Shown here piece by piece: positions 7,146 to 57,225 of a DNA stretch of 64,000 nucleotides (position 1 is its first letter; the number at the start of each line of letters is the position of its first letter). This DNA comes from Escherichia coli (GTDB taxonomy: Bacteria; Pseudomonadota; Gammaproteobacteria; Enterobacterales; Enterobacteriaceae), in assembly GCF_003790525.1 (NCBI RefSeq), contig NZ_CP033635.1. One strand, given 5' to 3'. The position numbers were made by a program, and so were the translations under genes. The notes beneath the pieces were generated by a model. It was given only the letters and a program-made list of their open reading frames with translations. It did not search any database and had not been told where the DNA came from.

Positions 7146-8705
7146 TTACTTGATATCTTTCACGCGCATACCGTTGATCTGTTCATCCGTGATGGTGTTA
7201 CCCGCTTTGAAGTAATCAACCACGGCGTGATAAACGTAATAACCGCCCGTTGTGTTACGCGCTTTCCCTTCGGTAAAGGCGGTAAAACCATCTCCACCAT
7301 CAGCAAGGAAACTCTGAGTAGCAATGTGGTAAATCGTCGCATCTTCAATGGGTTTGCCATTCAGAGTCAGCGTGATTACCCGCTGACCAACCGGCTTACT
7401 GCTGTCGTACTTCATTTCCAGGCCTTTCGATACCTGTAAAACGCCATTACTCAAACTTGCGCCGTGTTCCATCAAACTGCGTAATTGTTTACCCGTGAGA
7501 TCCATCGTCACCAGTTCGTTGGGGAACGGGAAGGTACTGATGACGCCACCCATCGTAATTGCACCCGCCGGGATCTCATTGCGAATCCCGCCAGAGTTGG
7601 TTAACGCCAACTGGGTATTTTTACCCGCCGCTGCCAGCAAAGCGTCTGCCGCCAGGTTCCCGAGAGAAGCTGATTCACCATAGGCACGTTTTAGTTCAAC
7701 CGGCGATTGCGCCACCGTTTGTTGCACGACTTCATCCAGCTTTTTGTTCCAACTATCAATCACCTGTTTCGTTTGCGGATCGGGCTTCCACTCATCGGCG
7801 TAAAGGGTTTTAAGCTCGAAGTTTTTCACCGTAAAAGTGTGCGGCTTCTCTTTGTAGTCGAGAACCAGTTTACCGACATCAATCCCGCCGCTGTCAGTGG
7901 AGAGGATTAACGTATTGCCGACTTTAATCGGTTCCGGCGTACCCACATGTGCATGCCCGGTGATCAAAATATCCAACCCTTTCACCTGACTTGCCGTCTG
8001 AATATCTTTATCCAGTGCGCGACGCACATCCGTGCCTCCCATACTGGACTGGCGGGCCGGAACACCTTCGTGGATCAGGGCGACGGTTAGATCAACCTTG
8101 CCTTTGAGTTCATCGATATAACGTTGTAGCCATTTAATTTCATCACGCGCCTCAATACCCACTCGCGTTGCCGCAGATACCGTATCATTAAAGGCAAATA
8201 CACCGTGCAAACCAATCACGCCAATTTTCACGCCGTCTTTTTCAATGATGGTATAGGGCTTATCCCAGAATGATTTACTGCTGTTCTGATAAAAAACATT
8301 ACCCTGCACAATCGGGAATTTTGCCTGACTCAACTGTAATAACGTATTGTCCCAGCCGTGATCAAATTCATGATTACCTATAGTGACCGCATCGAATGGC
8401 ATGGTATTCATAATATCGATAATCGCCTTGCCTTTAGTCAGGCTGCTGATATACGGTCCGGTAAAATAGTCACCCGCATCAAAAAACCAGGTCGCTTTGT
8501 TTTTAGCTTTTTCTTGTTTAACAAGCGTAGTGATATTTGCCCAGCCGCCAATATCCCGTTTACCGTCAGCAATCCACGGCACTTTATAAGGCTCTACATG
8601 TGCATGGAGGTCGTTGGTATAAATGATGGTGACATCTTTGGCGCAAGCCCAAAACGGCAGTGTTAATGCGATACCCGCAGCAAGCATTTTAATTTTCATA
8701 AACAA
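7146..8705 (-). CDS. Secreted bifunctional metallophosphatase/5'-nucleotidase (UshA/YfkN family) paralog A
   Basis: Signal peptide then [33 protein letters not shown] metallophosphatase motifs and a C-terminal 5'-nucleotidase substrate-binding region. Confidence 0.85.
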
Positions 8706-8831
8706 TCCCTTCCAGTGAGATAAAGGATTGCTACATTACGTTCTGAAAGGCTTTTTTATGTGAGAATACTCACATCCAGAGGCGATAACTGTAGGACAAA
8801 ATCAACGACCTTATGAAATCGTTGGTGATAT

Positions 8832-9959
8832 ATGTCAAATCTGTTTGCGATTAATGTCTGTAAAACGTTCGGTTGTCGAAATTTGGGATTGGCCTCATCG
8901 GAAGATTACAGTTGGCCAGACTATAAACTGGGTTTTCCGGCACTGCACTGCCAGGCATGCGGAAGTTACCCCCCTTTGTTTGATGAACAACAATTTCGTG
9001 ACTGGTTGTCAGTTCACATGACTGCGTGTGCCATAGAAACAGGGCATTTTTGTCCATCATGCTATTGTAAAGAAAAGATTTTTTATGGCCACAACCCGCA
9101 GGGAACACAACGCGTTCAATGCCGTTCATGCAAAAAAGTCTGGACTCCGAAACAGCAGCCAGCAAGAGAAATTACGTATCCCCAGTCCATTGAAACCGTT
9201 CAACTGTTCATGCCCTTTCAAGGAGCCAGCGCAGTACAAAAGCTCTATGTTTTAGTCAGTCTTGACGCCACTCGTGGCAACATCCTTCATCTCTCCACGA
9301 ATTATACGCAACATCAGACAGGAGACAGTCTGCGGTACAGTTACAGAGGCAATACAGAACCAACTGAGCACCATAGCGATATTGTGCAGAGGGTAGATAT
9401 GCGTGAAGCGCAATTCTTGCGCCGGAGCCAGTTCGATGAAATTCAGTATGGCAGTGCTGTGCTCAAGCGCAACGGCAAGGGAGCCATACTACGCCCGGTT
9501 ATCACGGCACACGGGCATTTCAGAATACTGAAAATCCGCTTTCCACATGTCAAAACGCATATCATTTCACACGAATGTTTTCTGAGAGGCGCAATTATTA
9601 CAGCCTGGGCAGATCAGTTCCGCCAACAACAAGGCGAACTTTGGTTCGTAGAAGAAGAAATCAGCGACCGTAACGCTGATATTCCCTGGCATTTTCAGGG
9701 AACGACATACCATGGTTGGTGGCAAAATCAGTGGCAACGCTGGGGGCAGGGGAATAACAGCAAGATGGTCTGCCTGCTCACAGGAGTCTCCTTAGAAAGG
9801 GGCGCAAATGTTTCTCTGGCAACCAGTCGTTGCTTTATCACATGGCTGACAGACCAACACGACTTTACCCAAAGCGCGTTATTATCCGCAGGTCGCGTAA
9901 CGAAAATGCTGACCTCACTGGCGTTAAAATACAATGAATCGCTCACTCCATCTTGTTAG
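8832..9959 (+). CDS. Hypothetical Cys-rich protein with putative N-terminal zinc-ribbon
   Basis: 375-aa ORF; N-terminus has paired CxxC motifs (CQAC, CPSC, CRSC); no family confidently recognised. Confidence 0.55.
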   Translation: MSNLFAINVCKTFGCRNLGLASSEDYSWPDYKLGFPALHCQACGSYPPLFDEQQFRDWLSVHMTACAIETGHFCPSCYCKEKIFYGHNPQGTQRVQCRSCKKVWTPKQQPAREITYPQSIETVQLFMPFQGASAVQKLYVLVSLDATRGNILHLSTNYTQHQTGDSLRYSYRGNTEPTEHHSDIVQRVDMREAQFLRRSQFDEIQYGSAVLKRNGKGAILRPVITAHGHFRILKIRFPHVKTHIISHECFLRGAIITAWADQFRQQQGELWFVEEEISDRNADIPWHFQGTTYHGWWQNQWQRWGQGNNSKMVCLLTGVSLERGANVSLATSRCFITWLTDQHDFTQSALLSAGRVTKMLTSLALKYNESLTPSC

Positions 9960-10188
9960 TCAATACACTCGACAAACGACCATAAATTAATGGGATCACT
10001 ATTTCTCATTTAATTAAATATATGAATATATGACTGAAAAATATAATCACAGTCAATGTTTAATTAATAACATTATTTGTTACCAAGATCACATAATACT
10101 TTCCTGACCTATGCTTACATAAAAATAAGACACGGTGTTCCTTTTATTTAAATAATTCAACCAATGTAACAACCCCTATCAAGGAGGG

Positions 10189-11741
10189 ATGATGAGAACT
10201 GTATTTACGACTTTATCAGTCATATTCAGCGTGATGTTTTCTCACAGTATACTAGCTCAGGACGTTACTATTTATTATACGAATGATATTCACGCACATG
10301 TCAATCCGGCAAAAATTCCCGCTGTTGATAAGAACAGACTTGTAGGTGGTATGGCTAATATTGCAGGCATCGTTAATGAAGCGAAGAAAAAAAACAAAGA
10401 TGTCTTTTTCTTTGATGCAGGCGACTATTTTACCGGTCCGTATATCAGTACCCTGACCAAAGGTGAAGCTATTATTGATATCATGAACACCATGCCCTTT
10501 GATGCGGTGTCCGTTGGTAATCACGAGTTCGATCACGGCGTGCCCAATATGGTATCTCAGTTATCAAAAGCAAAATTCCCCATTCTGCTGGGAAATATTT
10601 ACTACACCGATACAAATAAACCAGTTTGGGATCATCCGTGGACCATTATCGAAAAAGATGGTTTAAAGATTGGTGTGATTGGATTGCATGGTGCATTCGC
10701 TTTCTATGATACAGTCGCGGCAAAAGCACGTGAAGGCGTAGAAGCCAGAGACGAAATTAAATATTTAAATAAAGCACTTGCAGAATTAAAAGGTAAAGTC
10801 GACATTACCGTTTTGCTAATTCACGAAGGTGTTCCGGCGCGTCAATCAAGCTTTGGTAGTAAAGATGTGGAGCGGCTACTACAGGCAGATATTGAGACAG
10901 CTAAAAAAGTGAATGGTGTTGATGTCTTAATTACCGGTCACGCACATGTCGGAACACCGCAACCAATAAAAGTTAATAACACATTAATTGTATCTACCGA
11001 TGCATACGGCACCGACATCGGAAAACTTGTGCTTGATTACAATCCGAAAACAAAGAAAATTGATAGTTATAATGGTGAGTTAATCACCATCTTTGCAGAT
11101 CAATTTAAACCTGACACCATCGTTAAAATACTATCGATAAATGGAGCGTAAAGCTTAACAAAATAACACAGGAAGTTGTCGGCCATTCTCCCGTAGTTTT
11201 AACACGTGAGTATGGCAGTTCTTCTTCTACCGGTAATCTTATTCTGGATGCAATGATGGAAAAAACACCTGATGCCATTGCCGGATTTCAAAATAGCGGT
11301 GGGATGCGAGCTGATTTTCCTAAAGGTGATATCACACTGGGAGATGTTATTAGCACATTCCCCTTTAATAATGACCTCATCGAGATGGATTTGACGGGCC
11401 GCGATCTCAAATCGTTGATGACGCATGCAACCAATCTAACTAACGGTGTGTTACAGGTTTCAAAAAGCGTTGCGGTTGTCTATGACAGCAAAAAACCACT
11501 CAACCAACGGTTAATCTCTTTCACCATTAACGGCAAACCCGTGGAAGATAATCAAACATATCGTATTGCCACGCACTCCTTTTGTGCCAGTGGTGGTGAC
11601 GGTTTTGAAGCATTTTTGAATGGAAAAAATGTGAAGACGATACCGGGAACAACCTCGGCGGAATCTATCATCGATTATTTCAAAAATCATAAACCTGTCA
11701 CCCCAGACTTAACTAAACGAGTCATGGACGTCGCCAAATAA
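10189..11741 (+). pseudogene. 5'-nucleotidase paralog B, split by a frameshift
   Basis: Metallophosphatase domain ORF 10189..11151 and 5'-nucleotidase C-domain ORF 11253..11741; the C-domain frame stays open back to ~11127 and aligns with paralog A (IDKWSVKL vs IDSWNKKL), so a 1-nt indel near the A-tract at 11121-11130 is implied. Confidence 0.65.
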
Positions 11742-11775
11742 AATATCATTTATCAGTCTATATATTTAACAAGGA

Positions 11776-13401
11776 ATGCGAATGAAAACAGTGCAGCGTA
11801 CTTTACTTGCCGCAACATTGCTGACTATTTTTTCGGTCTCAGTCATGGCGCAGGATGTCACGATTATTTATACAAATGATCTTCACGCTCATGTGGATTC
11901 TTATAAAGTGCCGTATATCGCAGACGGAAAACGCGACATTGGCGGCTTTGCCAATATATCTACTTTAGTAAAACAGGAGAAAGCGAAAAATAAAGCCACC
12001 TTTTATTTTGATGCTGGAGACTATTTCACCGGCCCTTATATCAGCAGTCTGACAAAGGGCGAAGCAATAATTGACATTATGAATACCATGCCTTTTGACG
12101 CAGTATCAATCGGTAATCATGAGTTTGACCATGGCTGGGATAATGCCCTGCGACAATTAAGCAAAGCGAATTTTCCTGTTTTATTGGGCAATGTTTATCA
12201 TAAAGAGAGTGAGAACCCCTTCTGGAACAAGCCCTACACCATCCTGGAAAAAGATGGCATCAAGATTGGTATTATTGGGCTACACGGCGTATTTGCATTT
12301 AATGATACGGTCTCGGAGCTCTCTCTCCAGGGACTCGATAATGACAATAATAACCGCTTTGATAAATCTTCCGAGACCCTTAAGAATCAGGGGATTGAAG
12401 CACGTGATGAAGTGAAGTATTTGCAGCATTATATCGACGAGTTACGTGATAAGGTTGACCTCACTGTGGCGCTGGTTCATGAAGGCGTTCCGGCGCGTCA
12501 GTCCAGCATTGGCAATACAGATGTTAGACGCGCTCTTGATAAAGATATTCAAACCGCTAGCAAGGTGAAAGGATTGGATATTCTGATTACCGGGCATGCC
12601 CACGTCGGAACGCCAGAACCAATCAAAGTCGGCAACACCTTAATCCTTTCAACTGATAGTGGAGGTATCGATATTGGTAAATTAGTCCTTGATGTCAACC
12701 CTACAGCTCGTACCCATAAAATGAAGAGCTTTGAGCTGAAAACAGTTTATGCCGATGAATGGATACCCGATCCAACGACACAAAAAGTTATCAATGGCTG
12801 GAATAAAAAACTGGCGGATATTGTACGCCAACCAGTGGGTGAATCATCGATTGCATTAACTCGCGCCTATGGTGAGTCATCGCAACTAGGCAACCTGTTT
12901 ACCGATGCAATGCTTGTCGCTGCTCCGACTGCACAGATTGCATTGATAAACTCCGGCAGCTTACGTGCGGATATAAATGCAGGCACGATTACCTTTGGCG
13001 ACATTACCAGTACATTCCCCTTCAAGAATGAACTTACTGAAATGGATCTCAGCGGTAAGGATCTGCGTAACCTACTGGAACACGGGGCATCGCTTACCAA
13101 TGGCATCCTGCAAATGTCAAAAGGCGCAGAAATGCGCTATACCCCGCAGAAACCAGTAGGTCAGCGCATAGTATCTTTTAAAATTAATGGTGAAGAGATC
13201 GTTGATACGAATATTTACCATGTTGCAACAACGACTTTCCTTGCACTGGGGGGCGATGGTTTTCTGGCATTCAAAGAAGGGAAAAATGTTCAGGTCCGCG
13301 CCGGAAATAACATGTCCGATGTCGTGATCGATTATTTGAAGAAAGGCCACAAGATTACGCCTGCACAGGTAAATGAAATGCGGGTGGACGTTAGCAAATA
13401 A
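11776..13401 (+). CDS. Secreted bifunctional metallophosphatase/5'-nucleotidase (UshA/YfkN family) paralog C
   Basis: Signal peptide, same motif set as paralog A, with an extra D/N-rich insertion (DNDNNNRFDKSSETLKNQG). Confidence 0.85.
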   Translation: MRMKTVQRTLLAATLLTIFSVSVMAQDVTIIYTNDLHAHVDSYKVPYIADGKRDIGGFANISTLVKQEKAKNKATFYFDAGDYFTGPYISSLTKGEAIIDIMNTMPFDAVSIGNHEFDHGWDNALRQLSKANFPVLLGNVYHKESENPFWNKPYTILEKDGIKIGIIGLHGVFAFNDTVSELSLQGLDNDNNNRFDKSSETLKNQGIEARDEVKYLQHYIDELRDKVDLTVALVHEGVPARQSSIGNTDVRRALDKDIQTASKVKGLDILITGHAHVGTPEPIKVGNTLILSTDSGGIDIGKLVLDVNPTARTHKMKSFELKTVYADEWIPDPTTQKVINGWNKKLADIVRQPVGESSIALTRAYGESSQLGNLFTDAMLVAAPTAQIALINSGSLRADINAGTITFGDITSTFPFKNELTEMDLSGKDLRNLLEHGASLTNGILQMSKGAEMRYTPQKPVGQRIVSFKINGEEIVDTNIYHVATTTFLALGGDGFLAFKEGKNVQVRAGNNMSDVVIDYLKKGHKITPAQVNEMRVDVSK

Positions 13402-13409
13402 TAAAAAAA

Positions 13410-13442
13410 TTATAATGCCATTCATTCACTGAATGGCATTAT
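13410..13442 (+). terminator. Hairpin terminator after nucleotidase paralog C
   Basis: Inverted repeat aatgccattca ... tgaatggcatt followed by a T-rich run. Confidence 0.5.
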
Positions 13443-13478
13443 TTTCTCTAAATCAACAATAGATAATGAGATATATTT

Positions 13479-14339
13479 ATGTGTATAAAAAAGCACGGGA
13501 TAGCTTTATCGATTCTATTAATACCTTGCATTGGAAACGCTCAGGAAATTAAAAGTGAGGAAGGCTGGTTACATCAAAGCTTGAATGTCATTGGTCGCAC
13601 AGACTCTCGCTTTGGCCCAAGGCTGACTAACGACCTCTACCCTGAATATACTGTAGCAGGAAGAAAAGACTGGTTTGATTTTTATGGTTATGTTGATCTA
13701 CCAAAATTCTTTGGCGTCGGCAGTCACTATGATGTTGGGATCTGGGATGAGGGCTCACCACTATTTACGGAAATAGAACCTCGGTTTTCCATTGACAAAT
13801 TGACCGGATTAAATCTTGCGTTCGGCCCTTTTAAAGAATGGTTCATTGCAAACAACTATGTCTATGATATGGGTGACAACCAGTCATCCCGGCAAAGTAC
13901 ATGGTATATGGGGCTTGGTACAGATATCGACACGGGTCTACCAATTAAGCTTTCTGCCAATATATACGCCAAGTATCAGTGGCAAAACTATGGTGCCGCT
14001 AATGAAAATGAATGGGACGGATATCGATTCAAAATAAAATATAGCATTCCTCTTACCCATTTATTCGGAGGGCGATTGGTATACAATAGTTTTACTAACT
14101 TTGATTTTGGCTCCGATCTTGCGGACAAATCACACAATAATAAACGAACCAGTAATGCTATTGCTTCAAGCCATATCCTTTCCCTGCTATATGAACACTG
14201 GAAATTTGCATTTACACTACGTTATTTTCACAACGGTGGACAATGGAATGCTGGGGAGAAAGTTAACTTCGGAGATGGTCCATTTGAATTAAAAAACACA
14301 GGATGGGGAACCTATACTACTATTGGTTATCAATTTTAA
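13479..14339 (+). CDS. Tsx-family nucleoside-specific outer-membrane channel paralog
   Basis: Signal peptide; [64 protein letters not shown] blocks match E. coli Tsx as I recall it; C-terminal aromatic residue. Confidence 0.85.
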
Positions 14340-14519
14340 ATCAGGTGATGTTTTAGATATTTTTACTTAATGCCATTTTGTAATTGTCATAAATAACTTC
14401 ACCATTCACACTGTGAATTCATCGCTCAACACAAAAGCCCCCTTATTACCGGGGCACTGACCAAAGGCAAAATGACAATCAATCACCACCTCCGCAGGAG
14501 GTGGTTTAGAGGTGACAAC

Positions 14520-14543
14520 AAAAGCTGGCAACTGCCAGCTTTT
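14520..14543. terminator. Bidirectional hairpin at the metL 3' end
   Basis: aaaagctggcaactgccagctttt palindrome directly downstream of the metL stop. Confidence 0.55.
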
Positions 14544-27901: not shown

Positions 27902-28588
27902 ATGGACGTATTCATGCAAAATATTATTCTTTTATTTATATATTTATTACTTATAGTCGTTAACCATTTCCGCTACAAATTCCTTTTGTCTGGCAACACG
28001 GGTGAAATGATTTTATATTTTGCTAACGTATTTTTTAACCCACTTGCCTTATCATTTATTATCGCCACAATCATCTGTATAACGATAAAAAAAAGAAGCA
28101 GCCACAGCTTTATTCGCGGCACTTGTTGGTTAATGGGATTATTTCTTATCTATAGCAGCTATACAGTGTGGGAACGACACAGCACATGGGATTATACTTT
28201 CCCGGGGCCAGGTATCACCGTCACAGTTCCGAGCAAACAGTGGGTTGCCAATATAGTAAAACAAGGACCAATCCTGGTGACTCGGGATGCCCATGCTATT
28301 TTAGTTATTGTTGCCTTCTCACAAAATGAACTCGGTGTGCATTCAATCGAGGAACTTACCGCGACTCAAAACGGAACTGCAGAAATGCATGTTTGTGATG
28401 TTAAGGGATTTGCCTGCGCTTATCAGGAAGGAATTCAAACAATGAGTGATGGCAAAATAAGACATGCTATTTTCATGACTCTACTGGATAACACTAATTT
28501 GATACGACTGGTCGCAGCTATCGACCCAGATTATTTGGACGAATATCAAGAAGAAGTAATGAAAATGATACTTTCTGCCCATCAATAA
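27902..28588 (+). CDS. Hypothetical membrane-anchored protein, tandem paralog 1 (AT-rich islet)
   Basis: 228 aa; N-terminal hydrophobic helices then a soluble domain; shares LLSGxxG, IKKxxxxSFxRGxCW, WxYTF..ITVTxP, HVCxxKxFxCxYQ blocks with the next ORF. Confidence 0.6.
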   Translation: MDVFMQNIILLFIYLLLIVVNHFRYKFLLSGNTGEMILYFANVFFNPLALSFIIATIICITIKKRSSHSFIRGTCWLMGLFLIYSSYTVWERHSTWDYTFPGPGITVTVPSKQWVANIVKQGPILVTRDAHAILVIVAFSQNELGVHSIEELTATQNGTAEMHVCDVKGFACAYQEGIQTMSDGKIRHAIFMTLLDNTNLIRLVAAIDPDYLDEYQEEVMKMILSAHQ

Positions 28589-56356: not shown

Positions 56357-56439
56357 GCGTGTGAGATTGCACAATATATAAAAGTTATGCTATCTGGATT
56401 CATTTGTAGAACGACCATACAACATTCGAGGAGAGCGTA

Positions 56440-57225
56440 ATGTTCAGTGATAATGTGACTAATGCGTGGTGGTTTATCTCTTTGTATCTATTTTTATTAA
56501 TAGCATTAACATTTGTTACCTTTGGTAAAAGTAATCTTATGAGGTTTATTGCACATCATTTCAATCTTGAGTATTCAGACAGAAAGTTAAAAATGCTCGA
56601 CAAAAAATGGCGCGACATTCAACTATTTAAAATAATTAACGGAATCAATGTATCAGGCATCGAAGATGTGAGAATGATACAGCAGGGGCTGATTGATGGA
56701 AAACTAAAAACATCGTATTTTTTCCTTACTCGCTTCTGGGGTGACATAACAAAACCACCACACATAATTAAAACAACAATTGTAATTCTGGCCAGTATTA
56801 TTTATATTCTCTTCGCATGTTATATACACAATGAACAATCCGCTATAGTAAGGGATGCCATAGGTATACCATATAAAAATATGATGTACTATGTTTATAG
56901 TGACAAAGTTCTTTTATCCTTCAAAAATAAAACGGTTGAATTTAATAAAACTTATAGCCTTGCCGATTGCAAGAGTCTGCAAAACGTATTTATAAAAGAC
57001 ACACTTCCCGAGATCGCCTGCAATAAGCTCTTACAGCTAAACAAGGAGGACTCCGAATGGTTAAGTCAGGAGATTAAAGATAATAACAGCCACAGAAAAA
57101 CATTATTAATAATATCCCTAACCTATTTCATTTCAGGTCTGCTTATATTCCTGTCATATACAAAATTCCTTTACGCCAATAAGAAGGTTTTAGAATACAA
57201 AGCATCAAATAAAAACCACTCATAA
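56440..57225 (+). CDS. AT-rich cargo (moron) membrane protein at the P2 orf30 position between S and V, opposite strand to the late operon
   Basis: 261 aa, about three predicted TM helices, very AT-rich, divergent from V; no family recognised. Confidence 0.6.
   Translation: MFSDNVTNAWWFISLYLFLLIALTFVTFGKSNLMRFIAHHFNLEYSDRKLKMLDKKWRDIQLFKIINGINVSGIEDVRMIQQGLIDGKLKTSYFFLTRFWGDITKPPHIIKTTIVILASIIYILFACYIHNEQSAIVRDAIGIPYKNMMYYVYSDKVLLSFKNKTVEFNKTYSLADCKSLQNVFIKDTLPEIACNKLLQLNKEDSEWLSQEIKDNNSHRKTLLIISLTYFISGLLIFLSYTKFLYANKKVLEYKASNKNHS

Follow-up and report, generated by a model that had tools for sequence, protein, structure and literature searches.

Genes and AT-rich tract between metF and metL

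The window analysed here is a 64-kb stretch of E. coli DNA, in which five genes lie between metF and metL. Their assignments are backed by Pfam, and the genes with their accompanying elements are as follows (positions in the window).

7146-8705, minus strand: nucA (c4898), nucleotidase, from the ORF and Pfam
8832-9959, plus strand: hyp (c4897), hypothetical protein of 375 aa, upstream of the tract
9960-10188, no strand assigned: AT-rich intergenic tract, GC 28.4%, the gap between hyp and nucB
10181-10187, plus strand: Shine-Dalgarno sequence AAGGAGG for nucB, serving the ATG codons at 10189 and 10192
10189-11741, plus strand: nucB, nucleotidase B (c4896 in CFT073), split into 10189-11151 and 11253-11741
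11776-13401, plus strand: nucC, nucleotidase C (c4895), from the ORF and Pfam
13412-13442, plus strand: terminator-like hairpin in the gap from nucC to the tsx-like gene, with a 13-bp stem and a T-run after it
13479-14339, plus strand: tsx-like nucleoside channel gene (c4894), from the ORF and Pfam

The tract is the exact non-coding gap between the stop of hyp at 9959 and the ORF start of nucleotidase B at 10189, while RefSeq starts nucB at the ATG at 10192. From 8700 to 13500 the sequence is that of SMS-3-5 bar one base. As the first-pass annotation had described, nucB is split: one C has been lost in GTTCAAAATA at 11124/5, a frameshifting 1-nt deletion relative to SMS-3-5, and the gene is intact both there and in CFT073. 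Clusters of nucB fragments of ~320 aa and 306 aa in the protein database hold hundreds of members; therefore, truncated forms may be common in some lineages rather than the result of sequencing error. The tsx-like ORF of the window is intact, with 286 aa and 97.9% identity to the CFT073 protein. The corresponding gene of SMS-3-5 (13781-14626 in L001; ~13479-14324 of the window) is flagged by RefSeq as a pseudogene with its C-terminus missing, and since the window ORF is intact, this flag looks like an annotation artefact.

The same island is found in extraintestinal pathogenic strains as GR 31 (metL to metF), defined in an ExPEC comparison with strain BEN2908. According to the accessible part of that paper, GR 31 comprises a Tsx-like gene and three UshA/YfkN-like nucleotidases, is common to BEN2908, UTI89, RS218, CFT073 and others, and is suggested to be a system for nucleoside processing and uptake (PMC12928451). 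That part deals with gene content only, and discusses neither the intergenic tract nor regulation nor a two-step build of the island.

The composition of the tract is extreme for its surroundings. Its GC content is 28.4% over 229 bp, compared with 51.4% for the 64-kb window, which bears out the earlier description of about 230 bp of strongly AT-rich DNA before the split paralog, with exact coordinates (the string quoted there maps to 10010-10047). Only 0.14% of all 229-bp windows in the 64 kb have a GC content this low, and the global minimum for this length (27.1%, at 9924) overlaps the tract, which is thus the deepest AT trough of the 64 kb. TpA steps are about three-fold denser than in the window (12.2 vs 4.3 per 100 bp), and hexamers of the -10-like form TANNNT are 3.5-fold denser (7.0 vs 2.0 per 100 bp). 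The DNA had also been called curved-looking, a description that does not survive calculation: the A-tracts are spaced by 28, 25, 25, 59, 21 and 12 bp, out of helical phase, and both the wedge-model bend (16.0 degrees against a window mean of 14.1, with approximate model parameters) and the end-to-end distance are average. A single local bend near 9968 is the only one to reach the 99th percentile in this model.

Other AT troughs of like depth (GC 28-31%) occur in the window only at ~27807-28156 and ~56360-57027. The former spans strain-specific hypothetical genes adjoining rraA; the latter takes in an opposite-strand hypothetical gene within P2-like phage tail and baseplate genes, and looks moron-like.

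Origin and distribution of the low-GC module

The tract forms the left end of a larger low-GC segment, which is bounded by two copies of the pentamer TACAA.

9930-9934, plus strand: left TACAA, in conserved Tyr-Asn codons of hyp; homology to loci with two genes ends here or shortly before
9935-14556, plus strand: low-GC segment, 4.6 kb, GC 40.8%, specific to SMS-3-5-like and CFT073-like E. coli lineages
14557-14561, plus strand: right TACAA, at the stop codon of metL; from 14557, homology to loci with two genes restarts

The segment holds the last eight codons of hyp, the tract, nucB, nucC, the tsx-like gene and a 216-bp spacer. In 37 metF-metL loci of other species with both flanks captured, including Citrobacter, Klebsiella, Kluyvera, Phytobacter, Salmonella arizonae and other Escherichia, only nucA and hyp are present, and tract-like DNA was found neither at this locus in more than 30 other Enterobacteriaceae species nor at any other locus compared. 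DNA homology to these two-gene loci runs through hyp to 9772-9922 and is resumed from 14557, at the metL stop. The TACAA copies at 9930 and 14557 thus constitute a 5-bp microhomology across the junctions. Both copies are native, one to the Tyr-Asn codons of hyp and the other to the end of metL, so that the junction fits either an insertion or a microhomology-mediated deletion in the two-gene Escherichia lineages, and the junctions alone do not tell one from the other.

Composition and divergence, on the other hand, favour a separately acquired module. GC3 is ~35% for nucB and the tsx-like gene vs 59-64% for metF and metL. At 4-fold sites, nucB and the tsx-like gene differ by 7-8% between the SMS-3-5 and CFT073 alleles, nucC by 16%, and nucA and metF by 23%. 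The horizontal acquisition proposed in the first-pass annotation is in keeping with this 40.8%-GC segment, with its limited distribution among E. coli genomes and with its absence from the locus in the other Enterobacteriaceae species. Over its whole length, metF differs by 5.6% between the SMS-3-5 and CFT073 alleles. In our judgement this value seems unusually high for a core gene within E. coli, which suggests old recombination at the metF-metL locus.

Of 5,426 complete E. coli genomes, 658 contain the tract and the module and 1,841 contain hyp; the remaining 1,183 carriers of hyp have a ~77-89% identical allele of this gene, and lack the tract. With a 551-bp query around the tract (9800-10350), two alleles are distinguished among the 658 genomes: an SMS-3-5-like allele (97 genomes, at least 99% identity to the window) and a second one (561 genomes, 90-95% identity) that includes CFT073, UTI89, NU14 and Nissle 1917. 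We take the two tract-bearing lineages to be phylogroups F and B2. The tract of CFT073 is 90% identical to that of the window. The closest relatives of nucB outside E. coli reach 76% identity only, and sit between roxA and mmuP, where the gene order is nucB-tsx-nucC and a hyp paralog points the opposite way. No third allele of the tract was found, the region upstream of a 94%-identical nucB variant being identical to the CFT073 allele, and because the relatives of nucB drop from 94% to 76% identity, there is no intermediate promoter for comparison.

Predicted regulatory elements

Pattern searches and a promoter scan of the tract, together with inspection of the divergent intergenic region between nucA and hyp, yielded the following elements.

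8759-8774, no strand assigned: perfect CRP site TGTGAGAATACTCACA, between the divergent genes nucA and hyp
10042-10047, plus strand: TATAAT, a perfect -10 hexamer whose -35 is poor; shared by both alleles and one among several promoter candidates
10055-10074, no strand assigned: palindrome AATGTT-TAATTAAT-AACATT, 20 bp, candidate operator, 3 bp upstream of the CRP-like site
10078-10093, no strand assigned: predicted CRP-like site TGTTACCAAGATCACA, one core mismatch to TGTGA-N6-TCACA
10127-10156, plus strand: best sigma-70-like pair, AAGACA, 18 nt, AATAAT, 9/12 in the scan; implied start near 10163
10154-10170, plus strand: predicted CytR-type direct octamer repeat AATTCAAC-c-AATGTAAC, 1-bp spacer

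A CRP-like site of this quality arises in 1% of tract shuffles, and over the whole window such sites are no more numerous than expected by chance. The two alleles agree in the half-sites of the CRP-like site of the tract and differ in its spacer (C/T); a pattern search with up to two mismatches found no other CRP-like site in the tract, and none was seen by eye beside the CytR-type boxes. A weak half-site further upstream (10036-10051) was considered and dropped, as it is unconserved between the alleles and wrongly spaced. In Kluyvera-like genomes, nucB orthologues have non-homologous promoters, and these contain a CRP-like site of their own, TGTGAACGGACGCACA. The candidate -10 hexamers would place the CRP-like site of the tract at -36.5, -47.5, -77.5 or downstream of the start, none of them at the canonical -41.5, -61.5 or -71.5. 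At the perfect site in the nucA/hyp intergenic region, the half-sites are essentially invariant over ~35 loci of many genera while the 6-bp spacer drifts freely, and this contrast between half-sites and spacer makes strong comparative evidence for the predicted control of nucA and hyp by CRP. Directly before the start codon of hyp, a palindrome CAACGACC..TCGTTG at 8803-8824 was scored as a terminator-like hairpin on the minus strand, and a similar element lies ahead of the hyp paralog in Kluyvera-like loci.

The CytR-type repeat consists of two octamers that are related to GTTGCATT/AATGCAAC and separated by a permitted spacer, as in a CytR operator; each matches AATGCAAC at 7 of 8 positions. 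It is the only such pair in the 64 kb and arises in 0.08% of simulated tracts; the alleles share its octamers and differ in the spacer base. A class of CytR sites made of direct octamers 1 bp apart is known from SELEX and from the cytR and cdd promoters (PMC3454398). The tract thus shares with the CRP-CytR promoters (tsx-p2, cdd, deoP2 and cytR; PMC3454398) its association with nucleoside-scavenging genes, a CRP-like site and a pair of direct CytR-type octamers spaced as in cytR, cdd and SELEX. In the known cassettes, however, the CytR site lies next to or between CRP sites (PMC3454398), whereas the predicted boxes of the tract lie downstream of its sole CRP-like site, which ends 60 bp away, and overlap the candidate -10 and start. 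No match to a DeoR operator was found in the tract.

Promoter-like matches in the tract number 3, compared with 4.2 expected in shuffles. The 20-bp palindrome is identical in both alleles. Between the alleles the tract diverges by 10.4%, vs 8.4% at the 4-fold sites of nucB, i.e. at about the neutral rate, and therefore the conservation of a site between the two alleles carries little weight. As no terminator was detected between hyp and nucB, transcription from the hyp promoter could also reach nucB.

Other kinds of element are scarcely represented. Rfam returned nothing relevant in 8600-10500 at E values up to 10. Among four folds (two overlapping stretches of the tract, each on both strands), none is clearly better than shuffles; the best, for a 141-nt stretch, is slightly better (z = -1.84), and the other three are no better. 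Three small ORFs of 24-27 aa are present, none of them credible, and the only repeats are short AT-rich inverted matches. A resemblance by eye of the tract to the 5' UTR of hyp and to the promoters of nucB orthologues was rejected, with Smith-Waterman scores against shuffles at z below 2.

H-NS/StpA occupancy and the proposed regulation

H-NS, StpA and RNAP have been mapped in CFT073 by ChIP-seq (Hustmyer et al. 2022, PMC9765446). In the list of H-NS-bound genes (Data set S1, sheet 1E; top-20 scale from 0 to 1, cut-off 0.07), all five island genes are scored as bound by both H-NS and StpA, with the following wild-type occupancies (PMC9765446).

c4894, tsx-like gene: H-NS 0.504, StpA 0.448
c4895, nucC: H-NS 0.260, StpA 0.228
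c4896, nucB: H-NS 0.425, StpA 0.380
c4897, hyp: H-NS 0.114, StpA 0.094
c4898, nucA: H-NS 0.117, StpA 0.101

The gene lengths in the sheet agree with those of the island genes. The binding to be looked for in H-NS ChIP-seq data of a close relative, as proposed in the first-pass annotation, is accordingly present at c4894-c4898, in values that are given per gene and for CFT073, whose tract is 90% identical, rather than for the tract itself. The occupancy is informative because only 33% of the lineage-specific genes and 10% of the shared genes are bound genome-wide in CFT073 (PMC9765446). Furthermore, c4894-c4896 remain scored as bound in the hns single mutant, and their signal drops to 0.02-0.04 in the hns stpA double mutant (PMC9765446). 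Across the island, occupancy tracks AT content gene by gene. Strong H-NS binding is confined to the three-gene module of nucB, nucC and the tsx-like gene and does not extend over the island as a whole, hyp and nucA being barely over the cut-off. We infer that the tract itself is occupied, because both of its neighbour genes are bound and its composition is AT-rich.

In several respects the locus resembles the H-NS/StpA-silenced DNA described for CFT073 (Hustmyer et al. 2022): it is low in GC and lineage-restricted, and bears signs of horizontal acquisition; its AT content rises from the window (GC 51.4%) through the module (40.8%) to the tract (28.4%); the genes flanking the tract are occupied, with occupancy following AT content; and the tract has an excess of TpA steps and promoter-like hexamers. 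It differs from such DNA in two features that are often cited, and not obligatory, for H-NS targets, the high-affinity motif and intrinsic curvature. The 10-bp motif TCGATAAATT has one 8/10 match in the tract, as in shuffles, with no enrichment, and phased curvature is absent. The locus is not among the eight RfaH-activated operons in the accessible part of the same study (PMC9765446).

A literature search for a mapped transcription start or for expression of c4894-c4898 matched only a study of TosR, in which over-production of this protein raised c4894 by log2 3.3 and which predicted that TosR binds AT-rich DNA and antagonises H-NS (PMC5956150). Because of the hairpin with a T-run at 13412-13442, the tsx-like gene may be partly uncoupled from nucB-nucC. 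Such partial uncoupling fits the observation that c4894 is the sole island gene in the TosR top-25 list.

With a probability of roughly 0.65, we conclude that the tract is an AT-rich regulatory region at the head of the lineage-specific nucB-nucC(-tsx) module, covered by H-NS/StpA and with inputs from CRP and perhaps CytR. The position and composition of the tract, the lineage-restricted distribution of the module and the H-NS/StpA occupancy of the flanking genes in CFT073 are established, while nucleation of H-NS at the tract, silencing itself and the roles of CRP and CytR are inferred. The tract would control nucB-nucC from their 5' side, and transcription would in part read through into the tsx-like gene. 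The tract is probably a preferred loading site for H-NS/StpA, because no other stretch of the module is as rich in AT and TpA. A filament extending from it would cover the low-GC module and keep the promoter quiet in rich medium, and expression would then need relief of silencing together with signals of nucleoside and carbon state. These signals may be read through the predicted CRP site at 10078-10093 and possibly the predicted CytR operator at 10154-10170. Such regulation would match the predicted job of the genes, namely periplasmic nucleotide breakdown and nucleoside uptake. The silencing and condition-specific expression that the first-pass annotation ascribed to the island would, on this evidence, be a plausible consequence of the observed binding.

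It is also possible, though rather unlikely, that the tract is an ordinary promoter of the nucleoside regulon under CRP (perhaps CytR), to which H-NS binds from AT-richness with little effect on expression. Both a CRP-like site and a CytR-type repeat are indeed present, CRP sites are a constant of the promoters of this gene family, and many H-NS-bound genes of CFT073 still have a weak RNAP signal (PMC9765446). However, nucB and the tsx-like gene are strongly occupied, at 0.43-0.50 of the top-20 scale, and H-NS paralogs maintain this occupancy in the hns mutant. As a rule, moreover, H-NS and RNAP are inversely related in the CFT073 data (PMC9765446), and the CRP and CytR sites are not arranged in a canonical way. 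Distinctly less probable is a neutral spacer in a hyp-nucB-nucC transcript made from the conserved CRP-dependent promoter of hyp, with AT-richness as compositional baggage and no promoter of its own. The gap without a terminator-like site, the near-neutral divergence and the 3 promoter-like matches vs 4.2 in shuffles, with no clear consensus promoter, would be explained thereby. This is set against the length of 229 bp, the density of -10-like hexamers, 3.5 times that of the window and with a perfect TATAAT among them, the leap in H-NS occupancy from 0.11 on hyp to 0.43 on nucB, and the presence of two transcription-factor-like sites that are improbable by chance; moreover, nucB orthologues elsewhere have their own promoter region, divergent from the hyp paralog. 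It is very improbable, in our view, that the tract codes for a small protein or a small RNA, or acts as a cis-regulatory RNA leader. The three ORFs of 24-27 aa and the slightly favourable fold of the 141-nt stretch (z = -1.84) point that way, but the ORFs are short, none of the remaining three folds improves on shuffles, and there is no Rfam match even at E = 10.

A further and unlikely reading concerns the details of an H-NS/StpA-covered regulatory region. Here a stand-alone, near-consensus CytR operator would wire the ExPEC-lineage nucleotidase operon to cytidine/cAMP sensing beneath H-NS/StpA, and the 20-bp palindrome would be the operator of a further factor. An operator that overlaps the promoter and is not next to CRP would be an arrangement undescribed for the CytR regulon. 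One candidate for the palindrome-binding factor is the adjacent protein hyp, which has a transposase fold and a zinc ribbon.

Under the preferred reading, that of a silenced regulatory region heading the module, the tract is an ordinary further example of the well-known xenogeneic silencing of acquired AT-rich DNA; current understanding is unchallenged, and the value of the finding lies in annotation. The island appears to be built in two layers, an old nucA/hyp pair found across Enterobacteriaceae and a younger low-GC nucB-nucC-tsx module that starts at the tract. For a set of nucleoside-scavenging genes, a marker of the E. coli lineages with most extraintestinal pathogens, the analysis provides a regulatory picture that can be tested: the genes lie under H-NS/StpA and would probably be switched on through the predicted inputs, CRP and perhaps CytR.
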